Shown: piece by piece, positions 3,221 through 19,777 of the stretch
Layout of the letters: each line of letters starts with the position of its first letter
Numbering within the stretch: position 1 is the first letter of the stretch
Assembly (NCBI RefSeq): GCF_055900595.2
Contig: NZ_JBVWEU010000003.1
Origin: a plasmid
Length of the DNA: 64,000 nucleotides
Strand: one strand, 5' to 3'
Notes under the pieces: model-generated
What the model was told of the DNA's origin: nothing
The model's input: only the letters and a program-made list of their open reading frames with translations
The model's database searches: none
Program-made: the position numbers and the translations under genes

Positions 3221-3844
3221 ATGGCCAGGAATCAGGAAAAGAAAACGCCCGTCATTGTGGTGAAAAAACGTCGCGTTATTTCACCTCCTGTCGTCGATAA
3301 AACAGAGACTGTCATTCCGCCTGTACCGGAAGTGGCGGTACCACCGGCAGCTGCTGATGCGCAGCTGCCAGCCCCCATCCCGGATGCGTCTCCTGCGCCT
3401 GCTGCCGTCGGAAAGAAAAGGAAAGGAAGACCACCACGCAGGCTCCTCAGAGAGCACTGGACACGGGAGTTCACCGACCAGTGCATGGAAAAGGTCAAGG
3501 CAATTTTCCCGCATCTTCGCGCTGAAGGCGGCGGTTTTCTGCCTCTCAGGGTCGGTATCTCCCGCGATATTACTGCCTGGCTGGCTGAGCACCCTGAAGC
3601 CGGACTCACCCGGGATGAATGGGACTGTGCCGTATCCTGTATCACCTCCCGGCGTGTCTATCTGTTGCGTACCGCTGTCACCGGTGCCACCCGCTATGAC
3701 CTCGATGGTAAGCCTGCCGGGCAGGTTTCTGAGGATGAGGCAAAAAATGCTCAGCGCTGGCTGGCCATCCGGGACCGCCGGTGGGAGAAAAAACAGGCCG
3801 CTCTGGCCGGGGCAACAGGCGGGGAGAATACGACCGCAAAATGA
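3221..3844 (+). CDS. FinO/ProQ-like RNA chaperone domain protein (tentative)
   Basis: 207 aa; Pro/Ala-rich N-terminus with basic KKRKGRPPRR patch, then a C-terminal domain that resembles FinO by pattern; family assignment is from memory only. Confidence 0.4.
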   Translation: MARNQEKKTPVIVVKKRRVISPPVVDKTETVIPPVPEVAVPPAAADAQLPAPIPDASPAPAAVGKKRKGRPPRRLLREHWTREFTDQCMEKVKAIFPHLRAEGGGFLPLRVGISRDITAWLAEHPEAGLTRDEWDCAVSCITSRRVYLLRTAVTGATRYDLDGKPAGQVSEDEAKNAQRWLAIRDRRWEKKQAALAGATGGENTTAK

Positions 3845-3947
3845 CTCAGCTCCCGGCCGGGCAAGCCCGTCACTCTCCGACCGCCGAACCGCAGGTTGTC
3901 ATTGACTGGCTGGCCAGAAGCTGGGGCTGGTTGCCCGCGCCATGCTG

Positions 3948-4931
3948 TTACTGTTTACGGTGCTGATTCCCTTCGCCGTAAATTTGACAATCTCCGCGCC
4001 CGGGGTGCGGAGATTGTCGCTCGTTATATGGTTTGAATGCCTGTTTTTGCTGTTTCATTTCATTTATCAAAAAATCAGTAAATGCTCTTACTTTGGGGGA
4101 CAATTGCCTGTTAGTCGGCCACATTATCATTAAGTCTCCAAAAGGGGCCATGAACTCGGTCAACACGGGATATAATTCACGTGATTCTAATGCATCATGA
4201 GCAACATATATGGGAAGGTGGGCCAGACCTAACCCATTTACTGCTGCATATAACCCCGCGTATGTGTTATTGAAAATGAAGTTTTGAGGTAGTGTTATAT
4301 TTTTATATGGTGGAATGAATGACCATGGAGCGATCTTTCCATTAGATGGATATTTAAAATGAATACAGCTATGTTCTGATAATTCCGATGGGATTTGTGG
4401 AGCGCCATATCTGTCTAAATAGGAGTAACTACCACATACAACGAAATGTTGCTTCCCTATATATCTGCTTACTAACCTTGAGTCTACGGGATTACCGCTT
4501 CTTATTGCTATATCTATACCTTCTTTTATGATATCCACAACATGGTCTTCAAAGTCAATATCTAAATGGATTTCAGGATATAATAAATTAAACTTTGATA
4601 TTAACGGCATTAATAGTTTATGCCCAAATATATGAGGTGCTGTGATGTGCAAGGTTCCCCTGGGAGTACACATATTTGATGAAATGATTTCTTTTGCACT
4701 ATATAGTTCATCTAATATTAAACAGCATCGTTCATAAAACAAGAAACCATTTTCTGTTAAACTAATACTTCTTGTTGTTCTATGGAAAAGTCTTGTTCCA
4801 AGTTCATCTTCCAGCTTTGATATACTTTTTGCAATAGCGGAGGGAGATAGCCCAAGAACTCTGGCAGCTTGTGCGTAGCTATTATGTTTTACCGCATATA
4901 CAAATGCGGTTATACCTTGGAAACCCTTCAT
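3948..4931 (-). CDS. LysR-family transcriptional regulator
   Basis: N-terminal HTH (YAQAARVLGLSPSAIAKSISKLEDELG…LFHRTTR) plus ~300-aa co-inducer domain; divergent from the adjacent operon; AT-rich codon usage. Confidence 0.85.
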   Translation of the reverse strand: MKGFQGITAFVYAVKHNSYAQAARVLGLSPSAIAKSISKLEDELGTRLFHRTTRSISLTENGFLFYERCCLILDELYSAKEIISSNMCTPRGTLHITAPHIFGHKLLMPLISKFNLLYPEIHLDIDFEDHVVDIIKEGIDIAIRSGNPVDSRLVSRYIGKQHFVVCGSYSYLDRYGAPQIPSELSEHSCIHFKYPSNGKIAPWSFIPPYKNITLPQNFIFNNTYAGLYAAVNGLGLAHLPIYVAHDALESRELYPVLTEFMAPFGDLMIMWPTNRQLSPKVRAFTDFLINEMKQQKQAFKPYNERQSPHPGRGDCQIYGEGNQHRKQ

Positions 4932-5053
4932 GATAACTAATATCTGGATTAGTGAAAAAGAGTCATGATTATAATGACTGAATTTGATATTTACAATGGG
5001 GGGAGGGGTAATAAAATCAAATCGCCAGTAATATGATTTCTCTGTAAATAGTA

Positions 5054-5906
5054 ATGGTAGGTATATTTATGAGTTACATGCCCAAGAAAATTGAAGGGGC
5101 TTCTGTTGATGAGCTTGTGCTAAAAGGGGTTAAGCATATTATTAATAATGGCGAGAGAATATCCTCAAGAGCTGGAGGGGCTATTCAGGATTACGGAGTT
5201 ATATATGTTTTGTCCGATCCCCTAAACAGAGTTCATTCCTTGAGAAACGGAGCTATGAGGTATTTTGCAAGAGAGTTGATTGCCTATTTTTCAGGGAGTC
5301 TAAAGGTTGAGGATGGATTGGCTAAGGCATCAAAGTTTTGGGCATCGCTTGCAGATGAGAACGGGAATATAAACTCAAACTATGGATACTATGTGTTCCA
5401 TGAGAAAATAGATAAATATACAAATCAATATAATTGGGCTAAATGTGTCTTGTTAAAAAACAAAGATACCAGACGAGCCATAATCAATATAAATCAGGTT
5501 CGTCATAAGTCTGACACGAAAGATTTTCCCTGTACTGTAAGTATTCAGTTTTATATTAAAGATAATGAGTTGTACTGCGAAACTAATTCTCGAAGCACAG
5601 ATATTATAACAGGATTGCCATATGATATGGGATTTTTTTTCGTTTGTTCATGAGTTAATGTGGAAAGATCTTATCGAGAATGGATTGGAAGATTTGAAAC
5701 TTGGACCAACTATAATGAAAACAACATTTACTCAGATTTATGATAAAACAATAAATAAAGCATATGAAATTCTGAATAATGAATGTAATGATCTTAATGT
5801 TATAAATATGCCAAGTGTAATATCTGCTCAGGATACTTTAAATGATATAATGTCAGGAAGTTCGAAAACGGATGTTGTTAAGTGGATATATAAATATGCA
5901 GAGTAA
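5054..5906 (+). pseudogene. Thymidylate synthase-family enzyme (ThyA / dNMP C5-hydroxymethylase-like), split by a +1 frameshift in a T8 run near 5633-5640
   Basis: ORFs 5054..5653 and 5622..5906 together align with ThyA: DTRRAI versus DSRR, FPCT versus catalytic PCH, GLPYDMGFFSFVHELMW versus GLPFNIASYALLVHMM. Seven T's would restore a single ~280-aa frame. Confidence 0.7.
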
Positions 5907-6438
5907 AAAGAAAATATTCTTAACATCAAACAATCCAGCTAAAGTAGAAGCTGTCAAAATAGTTTGTTCTAAATTATTTGATGTTTTTTCTATCAAGCAT
6001 GAGGATATAGCGTCAGGTGTTAGTGATACTCCATTTACAGATGATGAGGCTATTTTAGGATGTTATACAAGAATTAATTCATCTGAGCATAATTTAAGTG
6101 AGCATGTGGATTACATTATTGCATTAGAAGGATTGATAGAGAAAAAATCATTTGGACAATTTGTTTATGGATGGGCTGTTATAAAGGAAATGGAAAGTTC
6201 GAGTTTTTTTTATGGATGTAGTGGGAAAGTTTATTTGCCAAATCGTGTTATGCAAAAGATGTCTTCCCAGAAAAGATTGTCTGATGTTGTTCTTGAGTTG
6301 TATCCAGGAACAAGTGCTGATGAGTTAAAGTTGATAGGAACGAATGGTGTATTGACCGGTGGACTATATACGAGAGCGATGGAGTTCGAGACAGCTTTAT
6401 TGTGTGCTTTCGGTTCTATGATGACAAGTAAAGTTTAA
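5896..6438 (+). CDS. YjjX-like non-canonical purine NTP phosphatase (inosine/xanthosine triphosphatase family)
   Basis: Aligns along its length with my recollection of E. coli YjjX (NNPAKVEAV; SGVSDTPF; YGWAVIKE; C-terminal GVLTGGLYTRA). Start taken at the internal ATG (MQSKKK). Confidence 0.6.
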   Translation: MQSKKKIFLTSNNPAKVEAVKIVCSKLFDVFSIKHEDIASGVSDTPFTDDEAILGCYTRINSSEHNLSEHVDYIIALEGLIEKKSFGQFVYGWAVIKEMESSSFFYGCSGKVYLPNRVMQKMSSQKRLSDVVLELYPGTSADELKLIGTNGVLTGGLYTRAMEFETALLCAFGSMMTSKV

Positions 6439-6453
6439 AAAAAAGGTGATATT

Positions 6454-7734
6454 ATGTTATTTAAAAAAGTAAATTTTCTTGATCATCATGATATGAGCTT
6501 TAGAAGAGGTGATATCCGTGTGATGGGTAATATGATCGTACAAATAGATGATGATCTGCAACCTATTGGAGATGAAGAGTTTGTTACATTGGATCATATG
6601 ATTGTTTTACCTGGGATTGTAAATGCACATCTACATCCAAGTAAGGAGATATATGGATGTTTATATGAATCAATGAACATAAATGATGTTCTTAACTCTG
6701 TTCATAAAAACAATAAAATGGAAACATCTGATGTGCAGTTTTTGTCTTCAACTAAAGCGTTAGTAAATGCATTAAAGAAAGGTGTTACAACATTAGGGTT
6801 ATTTACTAGTAGAGTTGATAGCGATTATGTTGCTGCTAAATGTGTTGGTGGGCGTTATGTTATAAATTTTTGTCAGAGTAATTACTGGTGCGCTGATGGT
6901 GTTCCTCCTGAAAGAATAGAGATCAGAGATATTATTAAAAACTACGATTTATATAGTAAACAAAAAAATGATTCTAAGATAATATTCTCAGCTGCAACAG
7001 CTTCTGAGTTATCTGCTGATGACCAATTGATCAAAAAATGTCATGATTATGCAGCAAGTAACAATTCAAGGTTTTTTATCCACATACATGAAGGTGCTGA
7101 ACAGGTTGCAAAACATAAATTACATTTTAATGAAAGTGGCATTAGTCGATTGTTTAGACTAGGGGTTTTAGATGAATATACAACTCTAATCCATGCAACT
7201 CATCTCTTGGATAGTGATCTTGATATTATTACCAGATCTCACTGTAATATAATTCATTGCCCTGTGAGTAATAGCTTTGTTACAGCGGGAACAATGCCAT
7301 TAAGAAAAATGATATCAGTAAATAGATTTGTTGGATTGGGTACTGATGCAGCTATGGTTAATCCAGTTAATGACATTACATTTGATGCACTTTTTGCTCT
7401 ATATCATCATGGTGACAGAAATTCTAACTTGAAAGTATCTGCCAGTGAAATAATAAATATGATCACATTTAAAGGAGCTGGAGCATTAGGATTGGATAAT
7501 ATAGGACTAATTAAAGCTGGTTATAAAGCAGATCTTATTTTTTTTGACTTGGAGAATATTGATGGCGATTATATAAATACGCCCGTATCTATATTGAAAA
7601 TGTTGCATAAAGAAACACCTATACATGTAATGGTTGATGGCAAGTTTATTATATACGAACATATGTTCGTGAATTGTAATTTTAATGATGAGCTTGAAAA
7701 ATACGCTTCTTTAAAAAAAGAGATTGTGAAATGA
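6454..7734 (+). CDS. Metal-dependent amidohydrolase-superfamily deaminase (cytosine/guanine/MTA-deaminase-like)
   Basis: 426 aa with N-terminal HxH metal motif (VNAHLHP) and downstream HATHL, HCPVSN, GLGTDA motifs typical of nucleobase or nucleoside deaminases. Confidence 0.75.
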   Translation: MLFKKVNFLDHHDMSFRRGDIRVMGNMIVQIDDDLQPIGDEEFVTLDHMIVLPGIVNAHLHPSKEIYGCLYESMNINDVLNSVHKNNKMETSDVQFLSSTKALVNALKKGVTTLGLFTSRVDSDYVAAKCVGGRYVINFCQSNYWCADGVPPERIEIRDIIKNYDLYSKQKNDSKIIFSAATASELSADDQLIKKCHDYAASNNSRFFIHIHEGAEQVAKHKLHFNESGISRLFRLGVLDEYTTLIHATHLLDSDLDIITRSHCNIIHCPVSNSFVTAGTMPLRKMISVNRFVGLGTDAAMVNPVNDITFDALFALYHHGDRNSNLKVSASEIINMITFKGAGALGLDNIGLIKAGYKADLIFFDLENIDGDYINTPVSILKMLHKETPIHVMVDGKFIIYEHMFVNCNFNDELEKYASLKKEIVK

Positions 7735-8339
7735 AAAATGTTGCATTTATTTTTTCAGGGAGAGGTAGTCTCGTTACAACTGTTTTGGATGCTATTAGAG
7801 ATAGTAAGACACAATCCAGATTATCCTTAATGATTACAAATAATGTCGAGTTTGATGAGAAATTTACCCCTAAGGGTGTTGATTTGGTTGTTTTAGACCG
7901 GAATGAGTATGTGAAAAGGAATGATTTTGAGAAAAAGATAATATTTGAGTTGAAAAAAAGAAATATTAGCTTAGTTATTCTTGGAGGTTTTAAATTCATT
8001 TTTTCAGAAAAATATGTTGATCTTTTTGGAAACATTACAATAAATACACATCCATCATTACTTCCTGCTTTTCCTGGAGATAAGGCGCAACAAAGGGCTT
8101 TAGCTAAAGGAGTTATATATACTGGTGCAACAATTCATTTTATAAATGAGCATGTTGATGATGGACCTATTATTGACCAAGAGGTTGTCAGGGTTGAAGA
8201 GGGTATGACGGAGTATGAGCTAAAGGAACAAATTATTGAAGTTGAAAAGATAATGATTTACAGATCTGTTAAGGCATTTCTCGACGGAAGATTATATTTA
8301 AAAAACAATCAGGTTATATATGGGGTTGATGATGTATAA
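7731..8339 (+). CDS. PurN-like formyltransferase (GAR transformylase fold)
   Basis: 202 aa; N-terminal FIFSGRGS, NTHPSLLPAFPG (Asn/His catalytic pair) and DDGPIIDQ (catalytic Asp) match the PurN family; ATGA overlap with the upstream gene. Confidence 0.8.
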   Translation: MKNVAFIFSGRGSLVTTVLDAIRDSKTQSRLSLMITNNVEFDEKFTPKGVDLVVLDRNEYVKRNDFEKKIIFELKKRNISLVILGGFKFIFSEKYVDLFGNITINTHPSLLPAFPGDKAQQRALAKGVIYTGATIHFINEHVDDGPIIDQEVVRVEEGMTEYELKEQIIEVEKIMIYRSVKAFLDGRLYLKNNQVIYGVDDV

Positions 8340-9519
8340 GATCAAAAATGATATACTTGCAGCTAGTTGTGTTGCCAGTATTCTGTTTGTGGCTATTATA
8401 TGTTTAGGATTGTCACTGGCAATATTACCCTTGTTTGTGAATAAAATATTACACTTGTCGCCTTTATTCGTTGGAGGAGTTATCTCTGTTGAGTCGATCT
8501 CTACATTGTTATCAAGAGCATCTTCTGGACGGTATTCAGATAAAAATGGCCCCAAAAAAGGAATGATTGCTGGTCTTACATTGATTGTTTTATCTGGTGT
8601 TCTTGTTTGTATATCTTTTGTTCTTAAAGAGAACGTTATTGCTTCATATATAGTGCTTATTATATCACGTATTATTATGGGGGTTGGTGAGAGTTTGGTT
8701 TTTACATGTAGCGGCACATGGCCTATAGGACTGGTTGGCAGGGAACATGCCGGGAAAATAATGTCATGGGTGGGGATTGCTATGTTCATGGGGCTGGCTT
8801 TAGGAAACTATATTGGTGTCTGGTCATTCTATAAATATAATATTATGGTGTCGGCCATTAGTATTACATTGTTTCCATTATTAGGGTTTATTATTGTCTG
8901 TATTGTCAGAAGTGTTCACTATCATCCCGATGTTATTTCTCCATCAATTGTTTATGGCATAAGAAAAATATGGAGAGCAGGAACAGGTTTTGCTCTCGCA
9001 AATATAGGATATGCATCAATCACCACATTTTTAGTTTTGCTTTTTATCGATAATGACTGGGGGAGATATAGTGCTCTTGGTTTATCTCTTTTTGGTATTG
9101 GGTATGTTACTTCCCGCTTAACAATAGGATGGGCGGCCGATCATGTAGGGTTAAAAACAACAATATTTTCACTTGGTCTTGAAGCTTTAGGATTATTATT
9201 TGTTGGTTTGTCAGTTAATATGTATCTGTCTATGTTTGGGGCTTTCTTAACAGGCTTCGGATTATCAATGGTGTATCCACTGTTGGCATTACCTGCAATT
9301 AAAAACATGCCAGAAGAAAATATTGGATTTGCAATTAGCCTTTATGAATCATGCTTTGATATTGGCATACTCATTTCCGGTTTTTTAGGCGGTCTGATTG
9401 TATCTTGCTTTGGGCTTCAATATATATTTTACTTTTCTTTTATATGTTGTCTGATCGCGATTCCTCTTTCTGTTATGGCATATCAGGTATCATCCACGTT
9501 AAATAAAGAATGCAGATAA
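8320..9519 (+). CDS. MFS transporter (likely efflux)
   Basis: 399 aa, about 12 predicted hydrophobic helices with glycine-rich loops; overlaps the purN-like stop, so probably co-transcribed. Confidence 0.8.
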   Translation: MGLMMYKIKNDILAASCVASILFVAIICLGLSLAILPLFVNKILHLSPLFVGGVISVESISTLLSRASSGRYSDKNGPKKGMIAGLTLIVLSGVLVCISFVLKENVIASYIVLIISRIIMGVGESLVFTCSGTWPIGLVGREHAGKIMSWVGIAMFMGLALGNYIGVWSFYKYNIMVSAISITLFPLLGFIIVCIVRSVHYHPDVISPSIVYGIRKIWRAGTGFALANIGYASITTFLVLLFIDNDWGRYSALGLSLFGIGYVTSRLTIGWAADHVGLKTTIFSLGLEALGLLFVGLSVNMYLSMFGAFLTGFGLSMVYPLLALPAIKNMPEENIGFAISLYESCFDIGILISGFLGGLIVSCFGLQYIFYFSFICCLIAIPLSVMAYQVSSTLNKECR

Positions 9520-9529
9520 ATCGGACAAC

Positions 9530-9793
9530 TTGTATGCTGCCAGGATGTTGAAATACTTCTGCTGTGACTGCCAGCACGGTACATTGTACGAAGGGACTCG
9601 GGGGGATACTGTGATGTTGCATGAGGATTTTCAGGAGCTTGAGCAGCCGGGGCCGGACAATGTGCAGGAATTTGAAGAGAAACGGCGGGATGAACTCAAC
9701 CTGCTCTATGTGGCGGCCACGCGGGCCCGGAAGACGCTTGTTCTGAACAGTGTACTTCGCCAGATTCTGGCAAACAGTCGCTTCACCGGATGA
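9530..9793 (+). pseudogene. C-terminal remnant of a UvrD/Rep-like helicase
   Basis: 87-aa ORF ends with the helicase C-terminal motif LNLLYVAATRARKTLVL; no N-terminal ATPase domain upstream; composition jumps back to GC-rich exactly here. Confidence 0.45.
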
Positions 9794-10054
9794 TTGCCTG
9801 GCCGTGACGAAAACAGCATGATACCGGTACTGGAACCGTGTTTTCAGGGAGTACCGGATATGTGGTTTTTTTCGACAGTTCTGTTTCTGCTCATTGTTAT
9901 CTGTTGCGTGGCTGGCGTTGTGAATGCACTGGCGGTGCAGCGTGAATTACATGCACGCAGGGAGCAGGAATATCATGCCCGGATACGCGCGGAGACAGGT
10001 GAGCGTATCCGGCGGGAATGGTATGAGCAGTGCCGACAGAAAAGAACACAATAA
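9794..10054 (+). CDS. Hypothetical small membrane protein
   Basis: One hydrophobic helix (FFSTVLFLLIVICCVAGVV) followed by a charged tail; no recognisable family. Confidence 0.3.
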   Translation: MPGRDENSMIPVLEPCFQGVPDMWFFSTVLFLLIVICCVAGVVNALAVQRELHARREQEYHARIRAETGERIRREWYEQCRQKRTQ

Positions 10055-10349
10055 ATAAAAACAGCGGTTACGAAGCAAAATGCATCGTGAGAGTACATTC
10101 AGTTATTTTTTGTTATTTTGTTTTTTATAAAACAAAATAACAGGCATGGTTAATGCGAGGTGTTTTATAGAAAAATGCCCTCAGAGGAGATAGTGAGGGC
10201 ATAAAGTAAAAACCGATTCGATGGATAGTCTGTTAATTATAATTTTAAATGGAAATTTTAAAACATGCAGAAACAGGATACAAACCGAAAGATAAAAAAT
10301 GTGATACAGAAAACAGAATATCACTATATCACGGTCAGCATGATGGCTG

Positions 10350-10561
10350 TCATTCTGCTGATGAGCAGTTGCTTAATACAGGTCTGTCATTCCCTTCTAC
10401 CAGATCGGCTTTTTTCCCTTTTGTGTACAGTTTATATGAGTAGTTTTTGTTGATGGCTTCGTAATTCGCTCCGGAGGCCATTTTCATAAGCTGCATGGGT
10501 ATCATCTCATCCATCTGATTTATCACTGCATAGGAGTTTCCGGCAGTGGTGTTGATATAGA
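10350..10561 (-). pseudogene. mliC-like lysozyme inhibitor gene, C-terminal part (displaced by the IS66 insertion)
   Basis: Minus-strand translation from the target duplication gives …YINTTAGNSYAVINQMDEMIPMQLMKMASGANYEAINKNYSYKLYTKGKKADLVEGNDRPVLSNCSSAE*, with the MliC-type SGA.Y motif; in frame with the N-terminal part at 13261-13395. Confidence 0.6.
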
Positions 10562-10591
10562 GTAAGCGGCTCGTCAGAACCGTATTGATAT

Positions 10592-12163
10592 TTACTGAGA
10601 GCTCAGATCAACTTTCCAGGGCAACAGATCGCGTACCCGGTTTGCCGACCAGTCCTGGATATGTTCAATGACGTAACGCAGCCACTTTTCTGGCTCCACA
10701 TTGTTCAGACGGCATGTGCCGATCAGCGAGTACAACACCGCCGCATGTTCACCACCGCTGTCGGAACCCGCGAACATCCAGTTTTTCCGGCCTACGGCCA
10801 CTCCCCGTAAGGCGTTCTCTGCGATGTTGTTGTCGATTTCCACCCAGCCATTACTGCAGTACACGTTCAGTGCATCCCACTGTTTCAGCAGGTATGCGAA
10901 CGCTTTTGCCGTATCTGAGTGACGCGACAGTGTTTTCATCTGAGTCTGTATCCAGTCGTACAGTGACTGCATCAGTGGCGCAGCTCTGGCTTTTCTTGCC
11001 GCCAGACGCTGTTCTGCTGAACATCCCCGGACCTCTGCCTCGATTGCATACAGTTCACCGATACGCTGCAGGGCTTCCGTGGTGATATCGGTAGGCGCTC
11101 TTGCATGCACATCGTGGATTTTTCTCCGGGCATGGGCCATACACGCGGCTTCCGTTATTCTGCCGGATTCGTATAACGCCCGGTAACCACCGTAAGCATC
11201 GGCCTGAAGCACACCGCTGTAACCGGCCAGGTGATTCTGTGGATGGATACCTTTCCGGTCCGGGCTGTACGCGAACCAGACCGCCGGGGGCATCTGTGAA
11301 CCGGTGTTACGGTCATCACGGACGTAAACCCACAGCCGGGCAGTTCTTGTTTTACCACTGCCCGGCTCCTGGACCGGAACGGGGATATCATCCGCATGGA
11401 CTTTACCGGGCATCAGCACATACTGGCGCAGCACGTCATACAGCGGCTCCAGCAGTTCAGCAACGGCACTGGTCCAGCGCCCCAGCGTGGCGCGGCTCAG
11501 TTCCACGCCCTGACGACGGTATATTTCTGACTGGCGGTATAACGGCAGATGGTCTGCATACTTCCCGGTGACGATATGAGCCAGAAGCCCCGCTCCGGCA
11601 TAACTGCGTGCAATGGGTTTTGAAGGTACTGGTGCCTGCACGATATGGTCGCACCGGCAACAGGCCAGTTTCGGACGTTGTGTTTCGATAACCTTAAAGG
11701 CGCTGCTGATAAGCTCCAGTTGCTCTGACACATCACATCCCAGAGAACTGAGTTCGCCACCACAAGCCGGGCAGCATTCCTCTTCCGGCCGGATAACCCG
11801 GGATTCACGGGGAAGTGCAGCCGGTAACGGTTTACGGGCTGAAGACTGGCGCAGGGAAGATGGCAGTGCCGGGTCATATTGCTCACCCAGTGTTTCCGCC
11901 ATTTCTTCCTGAAGTGCGCTGATTCGCTCCTGTGCTTCCTGTATCTGTCGTTCGGTTTTTGCGCGAAGTTTTTCTGAGCTTTTACCGAACTGCATGCGCT
12001 GCAGTTTTGCAACCAGCGCCTTCAGCCGGTTGATTTCAGAAGCATAAGCCGCCACCCGCTGTGAGAGCAGGCAATTGTATTCGGCCATCTGGCGGATGGT
12101 GTCCTGTTGCGCCTGCAACAGTGCCCGCAGGCGGGCGTTCTCATGAGCAAGTGAGGTGTCCAT
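10592..12163 (-). CDS. tnpC: IS66-family transposase TnpC
   Basis: 523 aa with an N-terminal coiled coil, a Cys cluster (CPACGG…CCRCDH) and a DDE-type core characteristic of IS66 TnpC. Confidence 0.9.
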
Positions 12164-12182
12164 ATCCTCACTTTACAACGGG

Positions 12183-12530
12183 TTATATGCGGATTCCAGC
12201 GCGTTCCGTTCGTTTTGGATGTTTCCAGTCGATGCCCTCAAGAAGCATGGATAACTGGGCCGGAGTAAGGTGCACCTTGCCGTCACGGGTGACCGGCCAG
12301 ACGAAGCGGCCCCGCTCCAGGCGTTTGGTGAAGAGGCACAGTCCGTCGCTGTCAGCCCACAACACTTTTATCTGGTCACCCCGGCGTCCGCGGAAGATGA
12401 ACAGGTGTCCGGAGAACGGGTCATTCTTCAGGACGTTCTGAACTTTTGAGGCCAGGCCGTTAAAGCCATTTCGCATGTCGGTGATACCGGCAACCAGCCA
12501 GATACGCGAACCTGCAGGGAGAGATATCAT
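12183..12530 (-). CDS. tnpB: IS66 Orf2 (TnpB)
   Basis: 115 aa with the conserved IS66 Orf2 signature (WLVAGITDMRNGFNGLA…GHLFIFRGRRGDQIKVLWAD). Confidence 0.9.
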   Translation of the reverse strand: MISLPAGSRIWLVAGITDMRNGFNGLASKVQNVLKNDPFSGHLFIFRGRRGDQIKVLWADSDGLCLFTKRLERGRFVWPVTRDGKVHLTPAQLSMLLEGIDWKHPKRTERAGIRI

Positions 12531-13207
12531 CAGTGGCTGCTCCCTTTCATTTCGCGGATAAGTGTCTGTAATAAGGCCGGTGTCAGTTCACCTTTCAGCC
12601 TGAGAGTTCCGGCCGGCAGAACCAGCTCACAGCACAGACTGTCGGACGGTGTATTTATCTGCTCTGGTTCCTGTGCCGGAGCCGGGATTTTATTATCCGG
12701 CTCCGGCGTTAACGTCACGGGAAGCAGTGCAGGCATATTTTTTCCGGAAGGCAGCAGGCCACCTTTCCGGTATTGATGGCGCCAGTTGAAGAGCAGGTTA
12801 TCGTTGATTCCGTTTTCACGGGCGATCTGCGCCACACAGGCTCCGGGCTGCAGTGACTGCTCCACTAAGGCGATTTTAAACTCATAAGGAAAATTAGGCC
12901 GCCGGGGACGTTTTTTTACCACCGGGACTTCGGACATAACGGTGTTTTCAGTAAGTACGACAGGTACTGTGGAGGCACTCCCGTAAAGACGGGCATCAAG
13001 TTCCCGCTCCGACATACCTGCGGGAAGAGGCCATGAAAGGCCAGCTTTGCGGAAGCGCACGAACATACCACAAACTGTTGATTTTGGTACGCCCAGGCGA
13101 CGTCCGGCCACAATCCGTGGTAAATGTTCTTCAAAGTGAAGACGTAAAGCTTCGGTGATCCAGGTCCGGTATTCCATACGATAGTGTCCATTAAAAATGA
13201 TGGACAT
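12530..13207 (-). CDS. tnpA: IS66 Orf1 (TnpA-like) with N-terminal HTH
   Basis: 225 aa; sits first in the three-gene IS66 arrangement and overlaps Orf2 by one base. Confidence 0.7.
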   Translation of the reverse strand: MSIIFNGHYRMEYRTWITEALRLHFEEHLPRIVAGRRLGVPKSTVCGMFVRFRKAGLSWPLPAGMSERELDARLYGSASTVPVVLTENTVMSEVPVVKKRPRRPNFPYEFKIALVEQSLQPGACVAQIARENGINDNLLFNWRHQYRKGGLLPSGKNMPALLPVTLTPEPDNKIPAPAQEPEQINTPSDSLCCELVLPAGTLRLKGELTPALLQTLIREMKGSSH

Positions 13208-13395
13208 TATTTTTGTGGAGCCGGAGGAAACAGACCAGACGGTTCAGATGAGGCGCTTACGATATAGACAACCTCCATTGTCTTGTTTCCATCACAGACA
13301 TAGGCTTTTTTTGAGATTTCTTGTGTGGCAGCGGAGGCTGTCATACAGGAGCAGGCGAGAATGAGTGCAAGGACGGCTGAAGAATATTTTTTCAT
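13207..13395 (-). pseudogene. mliC-like lysozyme inhibitor lipoprotein gene, N-terminal part interrupted by IS66
   Basis: Signal peptide with lipobox (LILACSCMTA) then YVCDGNKTMEVVYI; the original frame leaves at the target duplication and the ORF runs on into IS66 sequence. Confidence 0.6.
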
Positions 13396-13848
13396 AACAA
13401 CTCCTTCTGTAGGTTAAAAAGAGAGGTGCTTTGCCGGAGTTATATTAATAATTCATTCATCAGAGAAAACTTTTTTTTGTTACGGCAATAATAATGAGAC
13501 AATTCCAGGTAAGCCCGGTGCCGTTCTACGGTTGCACCGGGAGGGCTGGAACTCAGTGCGGAGATTTTTTACCATCCTGGTGATATAAATGATCATGTGC
13601 TGTTTTGCGGTCCCTGTATATGCCCATTAGACTGGCCCCCTGAATCTCCAGACAACCAGTATCACTTAAATAAGTGATAGTCTTAATACTAGTTTTTAGA
13701 CTAGTCATTGGAGAATGTAATGAACGCATCCCAACTATTTGAGTATGAAGCCGGGGTTGGCAGGAAAAGTGTGGAGCCTCGCAGATTTCCGGCATCATAG
13801 TGCCCAATACGGGATGCATAAAGCTCCCTCAGACTGGAGACTCCACAA

Positions 13849-14436
13849 ATGAAATATACACCGGTTGGCGTTGATATCGCAAAACATGTCATTCAGGTTC
13901 ACTTCATCAATGAGCACACAGGGGAAGTGGTGGATAAGCAGGTTCGTCGTCAGGATTTTCTGGCGTATTTCAGTAACCGCGAACCCTGCCTGATTGGCAT
14001 GGAAGCTTGTGGAGGCTCCCTGCACTGGGCGCGTGAATTAACAAAGCAGGGACACAAAGTCCGATTGTTGCAGGCTCGCTTCGTTAAAGCATTCGTCATG
14101 GGCAATAAGAATGACGTGATGGATGCGCGAGCTATCTGGATGGCGGTACAGCAGCCAGGCAAAGAAATCGCCGTCAAAACAGAAGAACAACAGTCAATAC
14201 TGGTTCTGCACCGTTCCCGCAGACAACTGGTGAAGTTCCGGACCGCGCAAATTAATGCCCTGCACGGGAGGTTACTGGAGTTTGGTGAAACCATTTCTTT
14301 TTCAGTCTGTATCGCAGAACTGCGTAATAATCTGAAGGAGAACTCTTCCTGGCTGGTTGCTCTCTGTGATTTCATTTTTGCACGTTTCAGGCAGTGCTGT
14401 ATTCGTCTCTGGATACAGATCCGATCATCTTCCTGA
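13849..14436 (+). pseudogene. IS110-family transposase, truncated or frameshifted
   Basis: The first ~150 aa (MKYTPVGVDIAKHVIQVHF…GMEACGGSLHWAREL…) match the IS110-family DEDD N-terminal domain; the ORF stops at 195 aa with a non-conserved tail. Confidence 0.55.
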
Positions 14437-14551
14437 AGGTAGTTCAGCAGCAATTCCTGCCAGCGTGCAGCGGCTCTGCGCCATAATCCCCGCTGTTCGA
14501 GCTCTTCAGCTTTTTTATCAGTAATCATATTCACCTCTGCTCTGGTCGGTC

Positions 14552-15352
14552 ATGCTTTCTTCCCGGTATGTTATAGTTATTAAGATACTTTTGTCCCTGT
14601 TCTGTTCCGGAGTGAACATGATTTTTGTCTGTTCTGTTGTACTGGCTGGCAGGGCATTCACCCTGCAGTTTGCCGGGAAAATGCTGTCCCTTTCTGCAGG
14701 AGATGTGCTTCTGATTGATGATGCTGATCGTGAGGATTTTCAGCCTCATGCTGAGCATATCACTGAGGTGAGGCTGGATGAAAATATCATCCGCAGATAT
14801 CTGGAGAGTTGTGGCGGCAACCGGGAGGCCGACAACACGGTTTCTTCTGGTTTCATCAGAGTGGCCTTTGCTCATCCTGCGTTGTTGCGTGACGTTATGC
14901 ATCATCTGAATTCGGGAGGATTTGTTCATCCCGGATTTTCCGAGCAGATGTTTTTTTCCTGCATTGCTGTCTTTGCATCAAAAAAAGGCTTTCTTCCTTT
15001 GTTGCTGGGCGGAATGCTTTCTGTGGCCGGGAGAGTGAGGCATATCATCTGTACTGACCTTTCACGCCAGTGGAAGCTGCGGGATGTCAGCAGTCGTTTG
15101 TATATGAGTGAAAGTCAGCTGAAAAAGAAACTGAAGGAAGAAGGATGTTCGTTCACCGGAGTGCTTCTGGATGTGAGAATGGGCTATGCACGCCGTCTGT
15201 TACAGGCCCGTCTGCCGGTCAACAGGGTGGCCGCGCAGTGTGGTTATGTAAGCACATCTTATTTTATCTGCGTGTTCAGGGAATGTTTTGGCGTCACGCC
15301 TCACAGGATGCTGGCGCTTCAGGAGCACGGGCAGCATAAAAGTGAATGCTGA
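14552..15352 (+). CDS. AraC-family transcriptional regulator
   Basis: C-terminal double HTH (RDVSSRLYMSESQLKKKLKEEG…VAAQCGYVSTSYFICVFRECFGVTP); the true start may be the internal MIFVC. Confidence 0.7.
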   Translation: MLSSRYVIVIKILLSLFCSGVNMIFVCSVVLAGRAFTLQFAGKMLSLSAGDVLLIDDADREDFQPHAEHITEVRLDENIIRRYLESCGGNREADNTVSSGFIRVAFAHPALLRDVMHHLNSGGFVHPGFSEQMFFSCIAVFASKKGFLPLLLGGMLSVAGRVRHIICTDLSRQWKLRDVSSRLYMSESQLKKKLKEEGCSFTGVLLDVRMGYARRLLQARLPVNRVAAQCGYVSTSYFICVFRECFGVTPHRMLALQEHGQHKSEC

Positions 15353-15535
15353 GTTTGAATTATTCTGAAGAACGGCGGGCATTTTATGGAAACGGCACAT
15401 TTCCGTGTCTCTGTGGTCATTCCCGATTGCTGTTGACGCATCGCCACTCACCGGAAATGTGCCGGAATATTTTAATCGTTCTTCACCGTCTGTGAAGGTC
15501 CTGTGCTTACATTGCTGAGCGGAAAATGGCTGGTA

Positions 15536-15573
15536 GGGGTTTGAGGTCCAGTGGAACGAAAACGTACGCTAAG
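15536..15573. mobile_element. Tn3-family 38-bp terminal inverted repeat (GGGGTTTGAGGTCCAGTGGAACGAAAACGTACGCTAAG)
   Basis: Matches the Tn3/Tn21-type IR consensus (GGGG…GGAACGAAAAC…ACGCTAAG) read directly from the sequence; the element interior lies to the right. Confidence 0.6.
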
Positions 15574-15662
15574 AGAGTAATTCGTTGTTTTTAAATAGCT
15601 TAATACGTTGAATCCGGGAGAGTTTAGCCTTCCCGGATTAGATGCGACGTAATCCCATTACC

Positions 15663-15880
15663 TCACATTCAGCGATAAACCGAACGTGCAATGCGGGTAT
15701 ATGTATGCCTGACTCCGCGAATGGCAATACTATAAGCTAGGATGTTCTCCGGTAGTGCCATCCCCATATAGCCGGTATCACCAATATGGTGCAGATCGGC
15801 CCCTGCCATTTTGCTCATTAACGCTATTTGACGAATGGTGCTTATATCAGCACCTTCCTGGCGGTTCCGGCGTAGAACCC
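15663..15880 (-). pseudogene. Probable 3' remnant of a Tn3-family tnpA
   Basis: A minus-strand frame ending ~90 bp inside the IR, oriented as tnpA is relative to its IR; assignment rests on context, not on recognised sequence; truncated before the par iterons. Confidence 0.3.
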
Positions 15881-15934
15881 CCTATTAATATTTGTTTTGT
15901 TTTAGGTTCTATTCAACATAGGTCATCCTAAAAT

Positions 15935-16015
15935 ATATTGAAGATAACAAGATAACAAGATAACAAGATAACAAGATAACAAGATAACAAGGTGTTATCT
16001 TGTTATCTCAAGGTG
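15935..16015. repeat. Iteron array: tandem 8-bp AAGATAAC units (about 6-7 copies) plus inverted GGTGTTATCTTGTTATC copies, downstream of the par operon
   Basis: Direct read of the sequence; a related array lies upstream at 17065-17120. Confidence 0.6.
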
Positions 16016-16318
16016 TTATCTTTGTTTTACTTCTGCTATCAATCGTGATACCTCTGTTTTTGATAGTGTTTTAAGTGCTTCTACCGCCGCCCTGACAACA
16101 TCAGAACGATTCACTCTGCCTTTACCTGAAACCATCTCAGCCGTTATAAGGGCATCAATGTCTTTTAGGTTTTCTTCAAAAAAAGAAATACTCACTGGTT
16201 TTGCTTTGCTTACAACCGATGATTTATCTGATGACTTTTTGGTATTATCAAGGCCAGCCGTGCCACCGTTAATAAATGCTGCCTCGTCACGAGGTGAAGT
16301 GTTTGCTCTATTTCTCAC
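16016..16318 (-). CDS. Small partition/centromere-binding protein (ParG/ParB-like, tentative)
   Basis: 100 aa, overlaps the parA stop; basic N-terminus; non-ATG (GTG) start per ORF track. Confidence 0.45.
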   Translation of the reverse strand: MRNRANTSPRDEAAFINGGTAGLDNTKKSSDKSSVVSKAKPVSISFFEENLKDIDALITAEMVSGKGRVNRSDVVRAAVEALKTLSKTEVSRLIAEVKQR

Positions 16319-16941
16319 AGAATAACCTCTTTCACTAACGCTTCGATTTCTTGCTGGGCTTTATCATTTTGCGTTTCAAAAATTGTCATTGATTCGGCCC
16401 AAGCATCTCGATGTGCTTTACGATCACATACCCGGGAGTTTGCCAGATGCATTTCAGGGTAATCCTTAAGTACTTCAGCTGCCTCATTGGCTTCATTAAC
16501 AAACATATTTGTGGGCGTCATGTTTAAAACGAGATATCCCCGAACATCCCCATTAAAATCTTTTGCTGCTGTAAAAACGGAGCATGTATGAGGCACAACA
16601 TCCAGGTCCATCTGAGATGGGCGCAAAGGAGAAATGAATACATCTGCGGCCATCAATCCACTACGCATTTCTGCGCTATCACGGCCAGCACAGTCTGCAA
16701 TAACAAAATCATAGGATTTTTCGTGTTCCTTTAACATGGCTTTGATGTTACCTGTCGCGCCTGTAACCGGAATATGAGGGAGATCTTCAGGGCGATTGTT
16801 GTACCAGGTTAATACTGATTTCTGGTCATCTGCGTCGACAATAATCACTCTATTGCCTAGTGACATCAGATACGCAGCTATAGATACCGCCAGTGTACTT
16901 TTACCTACCCCACCCTTTTGACTACCTAATACTATTATCAT
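16315..16941 (-). CDS. parA: ParA-family partition ATPase (type Ib)
   Basis: Deviant Walker A motif KGGVGKST at the N-terminus; 208 aa. Confidence 0.9.
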   Translation of the reverse strand: MIIVLGSQKGGVGKSTLAVSIAAYLMSLGNRVIIVDADDQKSVLTWYNNRPEDLPHIPVTGATGNIKAMLKEHEKSYDFVIADCAGRDSAEMRSGLMAADVFISPLRPSQMDLDVVPHTCSVFTAAKDFNGDVRGYLVLNMTPTNMFVNEANEAAEVLKDYPEMHLANSRVCDRKAHRDAWAESMTIFETQNDKAQQEIEALVKEVIL

Positions 16942-16949
16942 TATAGCCT

Positions 16950-17120
16950 CATATTAAGTTGTTAAGTTAACAACTTAATATTGCCATCTGAACGCGAATC
17001 ATGCAATTATTTTTGTTATATTAACAACTTAACAAGTTATTAAGTATTTGATTTATAGATTAATTAATATAACAAGATAACAAGACAACAAGATAACAAG
17101 ATAACAAGATAACAATATTA
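16950..17120. promoter_or_regulatory. par promoter/operator region with palindromes (AAGTTGTTAAGTTAACAACTTAA) and upstream AAGATAAC iterons
   Basis: Read from sequence immediately upstream of the parA start. Confidence 0.5.
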
Positions 17121-17136
17121 TGGGTGGATTACATAT

Positions 17137-18408
17137 TCATAACTGGGCTACTGGCAAATCTGTCCATCTGGTGGTATACGCAGGAGAAAGCATTTCCCGT
17201 TTCATTTGCCACTCAGGGGCGGTTCCTCGCCCCGCAAACCACACTTTCCCTTTTCCCGACTGGTTCAGTTCATCGAGTGTTTTCATTAACTTTTCACTGT
17301 TTTTACGGGGCTGGATTTCATCAAATAATCCCGGCTGCGCTATACCCGATGGTGTGAAATCAGCCAGCATGACTCCTGCCTTCATATAGCGGTACCCTTC
17401 ACGCCAGACATGGTTTAAGGCCCTGCATGCGGCGGCAATAATGTCCCGGCTGTCCTGTGTGGGCAATGAAAGCTTTTCCACAGCGGCATTGCTGTAACAG
17501 GGTTCTTTTACTGCAAAGGGGGATGTCCGTACAAATGTCGTCACCTGCCGGCAATACTGACGTTCCCCACGTAGTTTCTCTGCGGCCCGCTCTGCATACT
17601 GAACAACAGCCTGGTGCATGGCATCTTTGTCTGTGATTCGTTCACCAAAACTGCGACTACAGACAATCTGCTGTTTTGCCGGTGGTGCTTCTTCCAGGGA
17701 TATGCAGGACTCGCCGTTGAGTTCGCGTACCGTACGCTCAAGAATGACGCTGAAGTTTTTCCGGATGAATGCCGTGTTAGCCTGCGCCAGCTGCAGTGCT
17801 GTGTTAATACCCAGCGCATTCAGCTTTTCCGTCAGTCTGCGTCCTACTCCCCAGACCTCACCAACTGGCTGCAGCCCCAGTAGCTTCAAGATCCGATTAC
17901 GGTTTTCTGCCGTCAGCGCGACCACACCGGAAAACTGTGGCCATTGCTTTGTTGCCCACTGTGCACTTTTAGCCAGCGTTTTTGTAGGCGCAATGCCCAC
18001 CCCCATGGTGAGTCCTGTCCAGCTCTTTACCTGTTCCCTGAGCTGATGACCAAAAACCTCCGGAGAGATGCAATGATTTATCCCCCGCAAATCAATGAAC
18101 ATTTCATCAATTGAGTAGGGCTCAACTGCGGGAGAAAGCGACTCCAGAACAGCCATAACCCGTTGGCTCATGCTGTGGTACAGCGCATAATTGCTGGAAA
18201 ATACATGTATTTTCTTCTCCAGGCGCATCTGTCTCACCTGAAACCAGGGCTGCCCCATTCTGATGCCAAGGGCTTTTGCCTCCGGGCTGCGCGCGATCAC
18301 ACAGCCATCGTTATTGCTGAGTACGATGACCGGTTCGTTGCGAAGGTCCGGGCGGAAAACTTTTTCACATGAGGCGTAGAAACTGTTGATATCAGCCAGT
18401 GCAAACAT
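17137..18408 (-). CDS. impB: Y-family error-prone DNA polymerase subunit (UmuC/MucB/ImpB)
   Basis: 423 aa starting MFALADINSFYASCE…, the conserved Y-family polymerase N-terminus. Confidence 0.9.
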   Translation of the reverse strand: MFALADINSFYASCEKVFRPDLRNEPVIVLSNNDGCVIARSPEAKALGIRMGQPWFQVRQMRLEKKIHVFSSNYALYHSMSQRVMAVLESLSPAVEPYSIDEMFIDLRGINHCISPEVFGHQLREQVKSWTGLTMGVGIAPTKTLAKSAQWATKQWPQFSGVVALTAENRNRILKLLGLQPVGEVWGVGRRLTEKLNALGINTALQLAQANTAFIRKNFSVILERTVRELNGESCISLEEAPPAKQQIVCSRSFGERITDKDAMHQAVVQYAERAAEKLRGERQYCRQVTTFVRTSPFAVKEPCYSNAAVEKLSLPTQDSRDIIAAACRALNHVWREGYRYMKAGVMLADFTPSGIAQPGLFDEIQPRKNSEKLMKTLDELNQSGKGKVWFAGRGTAPEWQMKREMLSPAYTTRWTDLPVAQL

Positions 18409-18845
18409 CAGCGTAACTCCCGCGTCCTGTGTATCACGTGAGTGACAACACCAAAAATACAGATGTTTTCCGGATACAGTGTGCGGAACTCCGGGCTGTC
18501 TGAAACCGGCTCCAGTGCCGGGCGTGGGCGCAACAGCAGTCGTTTGACGGTGAACTCACCGTCGATCTCAGCGATAACGATGTCCCCGTGTTGTGGTTTT
18601 TCGGCCCTGTCCACTACCAGCAGATCACCATTCTGCACGCCAGCCTGGTTCATCGATTCACCGCTGGCGCGCAGAAAGAAGGTGGCTGCAGGTCTGCTGA
18701 TGCAATAGCTGTTCAGATCCAGTTCCTGCTCAGCATAATCAGTGGCAGGCGAAGGAAAACCGGCCTGGCAACGATCGGCAAACAACGGTCGCACGTAACT
18801 GTCATCGCCTGAAGGGTCAGCCGGACGGTGATAAACGGTACTCAT
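18408..18845 (-). CDS. impA: UmuD/MucA/ImpA-like LexA-type self-cleaving protein
   Basis: 145 aa with S24 peptidase-like signatures (GESMNQAG… and a downstream Lys); overlaps the impB start. Confidence 0.85.
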   Translation of the reverse strand: MSTVYHRPADPSGDDSYVRPLFADRCQAGFPSPATDYAEQELDLNSYCISRPAATFFLRASGESMNQAGVQNGDLLVVDRAEKPQHGDIVIAEIDGEFTVKRLLLRPRPALEPVSDSPEFRTLYPENICIFGVVTHVIHRTRELR

Positions 18846-19090
18846 GCTGCAGGCAGCCAGCTGTCGTCCTGCCAGATTTCTTCCAGCAGAGACAGGATAC
18901 GTTCTTTATCCTTGTCGTTGCGGGCTCCTGTGACAGATACAGACGGGGCGCTGCCCTGGTCTATACGCAGCCAGATTTCCGGGTAGTGTGGTTTCAGACG
19001 TTGTTCGATTTCATTCTGTAGCGCCTGAAGTGTGCCTGATTTGAGGTTTTTTGTGCTCTGGCGGTCGAAAAGAATTTCAATGCGGATCAT
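18842..19090 (-). CDS. impC: DinI-like protein (ImpC)
   Basis: MIRIEILFDRQ…LLEEIWQDDSW resembles DinI; start taken at the internal ATG; the longer ORF to 19150 begins with GTG. Confidence 0.65.
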   Translation of the reverse strand: MIRIEILFDRQSTKNLKSGTLQALQNEIEQRLKPHYPEIWLRIDQGSAPSVSVTGARNDKDKERILSLLEEIWQDDSWLPAA

Positions 19091-19113
19091 GTTCTCATCT
19101 CCCTTTTCTTTTG

Positions 19114-19129
19114 CTGTATGTATATACAG
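19114..19129. promoter_or_regulatory. LexA (SOS) box CTGTATGTATATACAG
   Basis: Perfect CTGT-N8-ACAG palindrome immediately upstream of impC. Confidence 0.7.
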
Positions 19130-19777
19130 TATTCTAATAACTGAATCCACACACAGTCAAATGTCATTATTGTGACTAAAAAACGCTCAATTCTCTGAGG
19201 GTGTGGCTGTATGCCTGCTGTGGACTGCTGTGTCCAGCTTATCCACAGCATTTTGCGCACGGTTCTGTGAATAAAATACCTGGTTACCCAGGCCGTGCCG
19301 GCACGTTAACCGGGCTGCATCCAATGCAAGTGTGTCGCTGTCGCCGGCATCCTCACCAGGTCACTCAGCAGTCAGGGAGAAAAATGGCGGATGAAGTATG
19401 ACGGAGACGGTCGGGCAAGTGCCCGTTTCTTTTCCGACAAAGGATGTCGCCGTGCTCCTCTTTTTACTGCGCCGGCTGACGCGGCGCGGCATAAACGCTG
19501 CCTGTGGTCAGTGTCCCGCGTCCGGCGGGCACGGGACGGGCGCTTTTACCGCTCCCGGCTGGCGTCGGTGACAGTGTACGCCAGCCCGTCGCCCTTTTCT
19601 GATGAACGCCCTTCAAGCCGCTTTCGCGGCATAGCCTTGCCGTCAGAAAGACGACGGCTGCGGTATTCCACGGTCGGCCTGACCCGTTACCGGACGCGGT
19701 GAACAGCCCACAGGCAGCGGGGAACGGGCACCACAGGGGTGCCCTCCCGGTGCCTTCTGTAAGAGAAGGAGGCTTTT

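Follow-up and report, generated by a model that had tools for sequence, protein, structure and literature searches.

A putative mobile nucleotide-enzyme cassette on an Escherichia coli plasmid and its proposed role in making an exported C5-modified cytidine derivative

Why should enzymes of the kind normally found in core nucleotide metabolism lie side by side with a transporter and a divergent LysR-family regulator on a plasmid? The question is raised by an AT-rich island in a 64,000-nucleotide plasmid stretch (NCBI RefSeq assembly GCF_055900595.2, contig NZ_JBVWEU010000003.1), the whole of which is referred to here as the window. A first-pass annotation, made from the letters of the window alone, had described the island as a packed, overlapping operon with a divergent LysR gene and had assigned its six proteins to families. 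ORF coordinates confirm this layout, with five genes on the plus strand whose ends overlap or nearly abut (Table 1), and profile searches show the six family calls to be correct at superfamily level. We put at about one half the probability that the island is a cassette, horizontally mobile and so far uncharacterised, for the biosynthesis and export of a metabolite derived from C5-hydroxymethyl(deoxy)cytidine. This reading is supported by a gene order kept across 11 lineages, by the addition of ATP-grasp, GNAT, LOG and CTP synthase genes in some of them and by the intact catalytic residues of the encoded enzymes. It is also supported by the location of the cassette on mobile DNA, namely on a plasmid, in an integrative and conjugative element (ICE), beside three tyrosine recombinases and beside IS110.

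Table 1. Features of the island and its right-hand junction (positions are those of the window)
Feature	Position	Strand	Remarks
LysR-family regulator	3948..4931	-	best model YafC-type, 175 bits, under cut-off
Divergent regulatory region	4932..5068	.	two dyads and back-to-back promoter-like sites
Thymidylate synthase (TS)-fold pyrimidine C5 hydroxymethylase-like gene	5054..5906	+	start 5054 or 5069; frameshifted in the window
YjjX/NTPase_I-T-family nucleoside triphosphatase (NTPase)	5896..6438	+	overlaps preceding stop by 11 nt; translationally coupled
COG0402 metallo-amidohydrolase (TRZ/ATZ, MTA/SAH deaminase, 8-oxoguanine deaminase-like)	6454..7734	+	profile and structure matches
PurN-like 10-formyl-tetrahydrofolate (THF)-dependent formyltransferase	7731..8339	+	4-nt overlap with amidohydrolase gene
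Major facilitator superfamily (MFS) transporter, PRK05122 group	8320..9519	+	presumed exporter; overlaps formyltransferase gene; 371 bits versus 374
UvrD-type helicase C-terminus remnant	9530..9793	+	UvrD_C_2 match, model positions 29-51 of 52; right junction marker, outside the system

The first gene of the operon encodes a TS-like protein that falls short of every ThyA equivalog cut-off, with a best score of 61.5 bits versus 327–405 and, for TIGR03284, 44.9 versus 108. Among sequences of solved structures the best match was the T4 dCMP hydroxymethylase (E 1.4e-16), with E. coli ThyA at 8e-11 and MilA at 1e-6. When an AlphaFold (AF2) model of the protein (pLDDT 92) was searched with Foldseek, the CMP hydroxymethylase MilA was the top match (TM 0.76–0.78) together with the T4 dCMP hydroxymethylase, and ThyA structures followed later with a TM of approximately 0.65. 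Phage homologues detected by tblastn were at most about 35% identical, those with specific names being dCMP or dUMP hydroxymethyltransferases. The Cys nucleophile (C155), E69 and D186 were invariant in 18 members of the TS-like family from six phyla, as were Ser176 and Arg135 across the family. D186 aligns with D179 of the T4 dCMP hydroxymethylase and N177 of E. coli ThyA, the position that selects cytosine over uracil, and the uracil-selecting Asn is absent from the family, Asp being present instead. In the published MilA structure, Ala176 and Lys133' were tied to a preference for ribose, and Ser and Arg to a preference for deoxyribose (PMC5175136). The Ala/Lys signature at 176/133' of the MilA/BcmA-type ribonucleotide (CMP) enzymes was not found in the TS-like family, which has Ser/Arg as in TS and the T4 dCMP hydroxymethylase. 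The protein therefore combines the TS fold, catalytic Cys, Glu and base-site Asp of the TS-family cytosine-nucleotide hydroxymethylases and, with its Cys/Asp/Ser/Arg residue set, carries what reads as the signature of a dCMP-modifying enzyme.

In the window this first gene is broken into two ORFs, at 5054–5653 and 5622–5906. The frameshift had been noticed at first pass and was traced to a single additional T, with T8 at positions 5633–5640 versus T7 in plasmid pLS45-2; the gene is intact both in pLS45-2 and in p1106-IncFII. The additional T may have arisen as an error in sequencing the homopolymer, or it may be a genuine mutation that inactivates or switches the gene. With this frameshift in its first gene, the operon as sequenced in the window probably does not function. 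Wider decay of the E. coli copy was considered and rejected: at family-invariant columns its departures do not exceed those of the Haemophilus or Bacillus copies, and there is no sign of erosion besides the frameshift.

To place the remaining enzymes, profile-model scores of the window's proteins were compared with the curated cut-offs of their housekeeping namesakes. Every enzyme in this copy scored under the cut-off of its namesake, family membership holding at the superfamily level. The NTPase reached 80.8 bits on the YjjX-type ITPase/XTPase model PRK05074 (cut-off 175), and its structure matches were VC0702 and YjjX (E 7e-11 to 9e-7). Its gene lies directly after the TS-like gene in all 18 distinct sampled loci that carry it, be they full cassettes, the trio, the pair plus LOG or the pair only. 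YjjX-type enzymes are described as yielding nucleoside diphosphates rather than monophosphates. The amidohydrolase scored 116–146 bits on TRZ/ATZ, 8-oxoguanine and 5'-deoxyadenosine deaminase-type models with cut-offs above 520, and the nearest solved structures were MTA/SAH deaminases, an 8-oxoguanine deaminase and uncharacterised COG0402 proteins. Its catalytic set (HxH, HxxE, His and Asp) is kept in all cassette copies, including those of Thermoactinomycetaceae and Bradyrhizobium. All copies also share a family-specific NAHLHPSKE loop, in place of which structure 3lnp has an H-x-H-AAMSLFRG-type loop.

The formyltransferase of the window scored 144.3 bits on the PurN model TIGR00639 (cut-off 150.1), the E. 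coli plasmid copy being the only one to score under this cut-off, and its best structure match was PurN 2ywr (E 5e-35). PurN residues N106, H108, D144, E173, G11 and S12 are retained in the cassette formyltransferases, all of which have N13 replaced by L, Q170 by I, V or L and I107 by T. For this comparison the E. coli PurN reference sequence was checked by its triad positions, and the roles of its residues are those given in the PurN literature. At residues 88–89 the E. coli plasmid copy has Lys-Phe and the other cassette copies Arg-Arg (9/9); the matching M89/R90 of E. coli PurN presumably lie near the folate site. The transporter belongs to the PRK05122 group, which we take to be a YhhS/YfcJ-like group, and is swapped for an EamA transporter in Bacillus and for MatE in Acetivibrio.

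Homologues of the TS-like protein at 46–71% identity are widespread, and a search for the same gene order, as proposed at first pass, found it to recur. The order TS-like, NTPase, (HAD), amidohydrolase, formyltransferase and transporter was present in at least 11 lineages of Gamma- and Betaproteobacteria and Bacillota, with protein identities of 40–71%. Full cassettes were found in Pectobacterium carotovorum (adjoining an IS110 transposase), in Erwinia persicina and Ewingella americana (both with an orthologous divergent LysR gene), and in Edwardsiella anguillarum, Trabulsiella odontotermitis and Xenorhabdus nematophila. They were likewise present in Haemophilus influenzae, within an ICE that also encodes ArdC, an integrase and a TraI_2 relaxase; in Burkholderia thailandensis and B. 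humptydooensis, where a LOG-family gene precedes the cassette; in Bacillus cytotoxicus, with an EamA transporter, HAD and CTP synthase; and on a metagenomic contig adjoining three tyrosine recombinases. The HAD proteins of these sister cassettes are closest to YjjG-family noncanonical pyrimidine nucleotidases. The unit moves horizontally, because in most hosts the cassette is AT-richer than its flanks (for example GC of 0.39 versus 0.52, 0.41 versus 0.565 and 0.40 versus 0.58).

Beyond the full cassettes, a number of variants were observed. In four species of Thermoactinomycetaceae the TS-like, NTPase and amidohydrolase genes are followed by four BacD/DdaF-like ATP-grasp ligase genes, an MFS efflux pump and LOG, with no formyltransferase gene. 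A Bradyrhizobium variant consists of LOG, ATP-grasp, MFS, GNAT, TS-like, NTPase and amidohydrolase genes, and an Acetivibrio variant of MatE, TS-like, NTPase, LOG and a beta-lactamase-fold protein. Within the sampled loci the formyltransferase was always accompanied by the amidohydrolase, and the amidohydrolase did occur without the formyltransferase. Additions such as those seen in these variants typify pathways that build a small molecule, tailor it, possibly protect the producer from it and export it. The suggestion made at first pass, that the genes serve biosynthesis and export of a pyrimidine- or purine-derived antimetabolite, gains comparative support from the gene order conserved across phyla and from the variants as far as a pyrimidine is concerned, and the dCMP-type signature of the first enzyme speaks against the purine half. 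As a separate observation, the Thermoactinomyces sp. DSM 45892 locus (8918–19941) reads in order as a PA0069/Rv2578c-type radical SAM protein, TS-like, NTPase, amidohydrolase, three ATP-grasp ligases, an MFS efflux pump, LOG and a fourth ATP-grasp ligase. This larger orphan cluster looks like a peptide-conjugated version of the cassette chemistry.

Taking these data together, the LysR-controlled operon would divert cytosine nucleotides into a C5-modified pyrimidine metabolite and pump the product out. Judging from its family, fold and residues, the TS-fold enzyme would transfer the one-carbon unit of methylene-THF onto C5 of dCMP, most likely as a hydroxymethyl and less likely as a methyl group. 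The YjjX-type NTPase would act on the triphosphate pool, either supplying the cytosine monophosphate or destroying the modified triphosphate and so preventing its incorporation by the producer. Release of the nucleoside or base could be brought about by the YjjG-like nucleotidase in sister cassettes, for which a host enzyme would be needed here, or by the LOG-type glycosidase in other variants. The amidohydrolase, in which the catalytic set is present, may carry out a hydrolytic reaction of the deamination type on the ring. The PurN-like enzyme might then N-formylate an amine of the intermediate, or might serve as an extra or insensitive glycinamide ribonucleotide (GAR) transformylase protecting the producer, and the MFS transporter is predicted to export the product. 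A bolder version, which we hold as possible but short of an even chance, is that an undescribed family of mobile clusters, spread through Proteobacteria and Bacillota and brought into E. coli and H. influenzae on plasmids and ICEs, produces and secretes antimetabolites of a new class, derived from 5-hydroxymethyl-deoxycytidine. The product would be N-formylated here and peptide-conjugated in Thermoactinomycetaceae, and the producer would owe its immunity to the YjjX-type NTPase and possibly to a PurN paralogue.

Several points weigh against the biosynthetic reading. Deamination at C4 by the amidohydrolase would leave no obvious amine for a formyltransferase, a GNAT or ATP-grasp ligases; therefore the hydrolase would act elsewhere, the acyl transfers would be directed at other substrates or at immunity, or the steps would follow a different order. 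The E. coli version carries neither the HAD nucleotidase nor the LOG glycosidase, and its TS-fold gene is frameshifted in the window. Sequence cannot separate hydroxymethylation from methylation at C5, the sole pointer to the former being a closer likeness to hydroxymethylases than to methylases. The direction in which the MFS protein transports is presumed, and LysR, MFS and amidohydrolase genes together also make up a common catabolic pattern. Of six sister formyltransferases scored on the PurN model, at least five pass, at 157–165 slightly over the cut-off of 150.1, and the current RefSeq label of the pLS45-2 gene is purN. Because most cassette formyltransferases marginally exceed the NCBI PurN equivalog cut-off, the enzyme may be a PurN paralogue, that is a true GAR transformylase, and not a tailoring enzyme. 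For these reasons the linear scheme of the first-pass annotation, from NTP to NMP followed by C5 modification, deamination and N-formylation, stays hypothetical, since YjjX-type enzymes would yield the diphosphate and not the monophosphate, C4 deamination removes the only obvious amine and the formyltransferase may be such a paralogue. Two further schemes were discarded. Ring rebuilding of the 5-azacytidine type, by formylation and then cyclisation, found no support in sequence or literature, and a thymidylate bypass, by dCMP methylation and then deamination, leaves the exporter and the LOG and ATP-grasp partners unexplained.

Four rival explanations were weighed, and the ATP-grasp, GNAT, LOG and CTP synthase variants together with the interchangeable exporters weigh against all of them. 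It is unlikely that the cassette is a nucleotide-pool defence or conflict module, in which the NTPase and TS-like enzyme would drain dCTP and dCMP into a modified, dephosphorylated and exported dead end and so starve or poison the replication of phages or competing elements. Such logic would be like that of T4 gp56/gp42 run without a kinase; moreover defence genes tend to cluster on the kinds of element that carry the cassette (plasmids, ICEs and islands with recombinases), and the homopolymer frameshift in the first gene could be a switch point. However, none of the six proteins gave a match in PADLOC, a sensor or effector typical of defence systems is lacking, and the variants that carry CTP synthase, GNAT or as many as four ATP-grasp ligases suit biosynthesis better than depletion. 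Close relatives are also nearly absent from viral contigs, where four relatives were found, none of them (0/4) with partner genes, so that the cassette is not a phage module; a PHROGs search returned matches to generic TS and PurN families only. We likewise regard as improbable a cassette conferring resistance to, or detoxifying, an external pyrimidine analogue or antifolate by modification, deamination and export, in which the TS-like and PurN-like enzymes would take over folate-dependent steps in a form insensitive to the drug. The presence of TS-family and PurN-like enzymes with an efflux pump on a plasmid of poultry E. coli would fit this explanation, as would the near-equivalog score of the PurN-like protein and the likeness of the HAD partner to the house-cleaning nucleotidase YjjG. 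Against this, the TS-like protein has Asp not Asn and lies far under the ThyA cut-offs, so that it cannot directly replace ThyA, and the cassette is very rare in E. coli yet widespread in plant-, soil- and insect-associated bacteria not under drug selection.

Transporter and amidohydrolase or deaminase genes beside a divergent LysR gene form a classic catabolic layout. This would suit a pathway that takes up modified pyrimidines (5-hydroxymethyl- or 5-methyl-cytosine nucleosides, for example) and degrades or salvages them, with the MFS protein importing and the TS-like enzyme running in the de-hydroxymethylating direction. We think this very unlikely, as sister cassettes pair the enzymes with a phosphatase and not a kinase, the NTPase, CTP synthase and ATP-grasp partners would be senseless for catabolism, and the interchangeable transporters come from three families including known exporters (the MFS PRK05122 group, EamA and MatE). 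Supply of a modified dNTP for modifying the DNA of the element itself or of its host is suggested by contigs of the candidate phyla radiation (CPR) and Dependentiae, in which the TS-like gene adjoins NMP kinase, nucleoside diphosphate kinase (NDK) and Nudix genes. The studied cassette, however, has no kinase, sister versions have a phosphatase or glycosidase, and an exporter is present, leaving this explanation very improbable.

The biosynthetic reading also invites comparison with known systems. Mildiomycin (MilA/MilB) and bacimethrin (BcmA/BcmB) are pyrimidine antimetabolites whose clusters begin with a TS-family CMP hydroxymethylase. The cassette resembles these in having a TS-fold enzyme with a Cys nucleophile and cytosine-selecting Asp, for which MilA is the best structural match, and in that some sister clusters add a LOG nucleotide N-glycosidase-type step and an exporter. 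It differs in that its TS-like enzyme is only about 20% identical to MilA by structural alignment, with deoxy-type Ser/Arg in place of Ala/Lys, and in that the window holds no MilB/BcmB homologue, methyltransferase, ThiD kinase or sugar-assembly gene. LOG proteins, as possible MilB/BcmB analogues, were seen only in the Burkholderia, Bradyrhizobium, Thermoactinomycetaceae and Acetivibrio versions. To our knowledge YjjX NTPase, COG0402 amidohydrolase and PurN-like partners lie outside the mildiomycin and bacimethrin pathways, the mil and bcm clusters not having been compared directly. With the T4 pair of gp56 (dCTPase) and gp42 (dCMP hydroxymethylase) the cassette shares the same Cys/Asp/Ser/Arg residues and an NTP-hydrolysing partner adjoining the hydroxymethylase-like gene. 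Identity to the T4 dCMP hydroxymethylase is, however, about 24% by structural alignment, and gp56 presumably belongs to a different family from the YjjX-family NTPase. Unlike the T4 module, the cassette lacks a glucosyltransferase and a dNMP kinase but includes a formyltransferase, a deaminase-type hydrolase, a presumed exporter and a LysR regulator. It resides in cellular genomes or on plasmids and hardly ever in viral contigs. The cassette thus belongs to neither the mildiomycin/bacimethrin pathways nor the T4 module.

Core ThyA, YjjX, PurN and MTA/SAH or 8-oxoguanine deaminases have the same folds and catalytic residues as the cassette enzymes, which differ in Asp for ThyA Asn177, in N13L and Q170(I/V/L) in the PurN-like enzyme and in the NAHLHPSKE loop of the amidohydrolase. 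A Pantoea PNP-1 cluster was examined and found to be unrelated, having in common with the cassette just a generic formyltransferase and a transporter. The impression at first pass that the gene combination is not a described system stands, as no description of the cassette was found in the full-text literature searched, which omits most subscription journals.

The island stands out in composition from its plasmid, as the first-pass annotation had it: the AT-rich block at 4030–9520 has a GC content of 0.341 versus 0.526 for the whole window. In 500-nt windows GC is approximately 0.58–0.61 over 3251–4000, drops to 0.29–0.37 across 4251–9500 and then climbs back. The left edge was placed at about 4030, because LysR homology ends where the last 26 or so codons of the ORF (3948 to approximately 4028) enter GC-rich backbone sequence. 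On the right, backbone common to other plasmids picks up again at about 9673. The adjoining helicase ORF matches just the last 23 or so positions of the UvrD_C_2 domain and is therefore a truncated remnant, in agreement with its initial description. As a whole the window nearly duplicates pLS45-2, a conjugative IncK2/Z plasmid of E. coli from chicken in China, and it also matches p1106-IncFII (E. coli, chicken); in IncK2/Z plasmids without the island, ProQ/FinO-PerC-HTH occupies the same site. The island was present in 2 of 72,556 PLSDB plasmids and 1 of 5,426 complete E. coli genomes, and is thus very rare in E. coli. An IncFIA/FIB plasmid from a turkey isolate from Canada (CP059926.1, 8001–8436) has a 436-bp remnant, 96% identical, that spans the left junction of the island together with the 3' end of its LysR gene and is directly followed by IS1. 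This suggests that an IncF plasmid formerly carried the island and later lost it by deletion.

Orthologues of the LysR regulator at 59% identity occupy the same divergent position in Ewingella and in Erwinia persicina (304 aa, the tblastn alignment spanning 301 residues). The gap between regulator and operon contains one dyad, ACTAAT-N6-ATTAGT, at 4936–4953 and a second, AGTCATGAT/ATAATGACT, at 4961–4979, together with promoter-like sites on the plus strand at 4990–5017 and on the minus strand at 4996–4968. Promoter-like matches in this gap were not enriched over shuffles of such AT-rich DNA. The dyads and back-to-back sites are suggestive of, and consistent with, LysR control, their position being only indicative and statistically undistinctive.

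Outside the island, an IS66-family element (TnpC, TnpB, TnpA) at 10562–13207, with minus-strand ORFs 10592–12163, 12183–12530 and 12530–13207, is inserted relative to pLS45-2. Its end at about 10562 (GTAAGCG...) splits a c-type lysozyme inhibitor gene that is intact in pLS45-2. Just upstream of the island the backbone encodes a RelE/ParE toxin-antitoxin pair and a ProQ/FinO-family gene (1820–2502 and 3221–3844), which are ordinary IncK2/Z features.

Contigs of CPR, Dependentiae and Chlamydiae also carry the TS-like gene, either by itself or accompanied by the NTPase gene, its neighbours including a Nudix pyrimidine (d)NTP diphosphatase, NMP kinase and NDK. This context in reduced genomes echoes the T4 route from dCTP through dCMP to modified dCMP. 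In metagenome-assembled genomes of a Patescibacteria (8691–12659) and a Dependentiae (9878–11243) member, close TS-like relatives of about 51% identity with the cytosine-selecting Asp adjoin a Nudix (d)NTP diphosphatase, a guanylate-kinase-like NMP kinase and NDK, which hints at dCMP-based nucleotide or DNA modification, or at an unusual thymidylate route, in these organisms.

If the cassette does make an exported deoxycytidine-type antimetabolite, it would represent a new natural-product pathway assembled from recruited core nucleotide enzymes and carried by mobile DNA between Enterobacterales, Pasteurellaceae, Burkholderia and Bacillus, including on conjugative plasmids of food-animal E. coli. 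It would then bear on bacterial competition in the gut and on plants, and on genome mining, as this combination of enzymes may escape recognition as biosynthetic. In terms of enzymology it would add a new TS-family clade of dCMP-modifying enzymes, a YjjX NTPase with a pyrimidine role and a PurN-like enzyme whose substrate loop is altered. The occurrence of the TS-like clade beside dNTPase and kinase genes in CPR, Dependentiae and Chlamydiae further hints at an unrecognised cytosine-nucleotide metabolism in reduced genomes.

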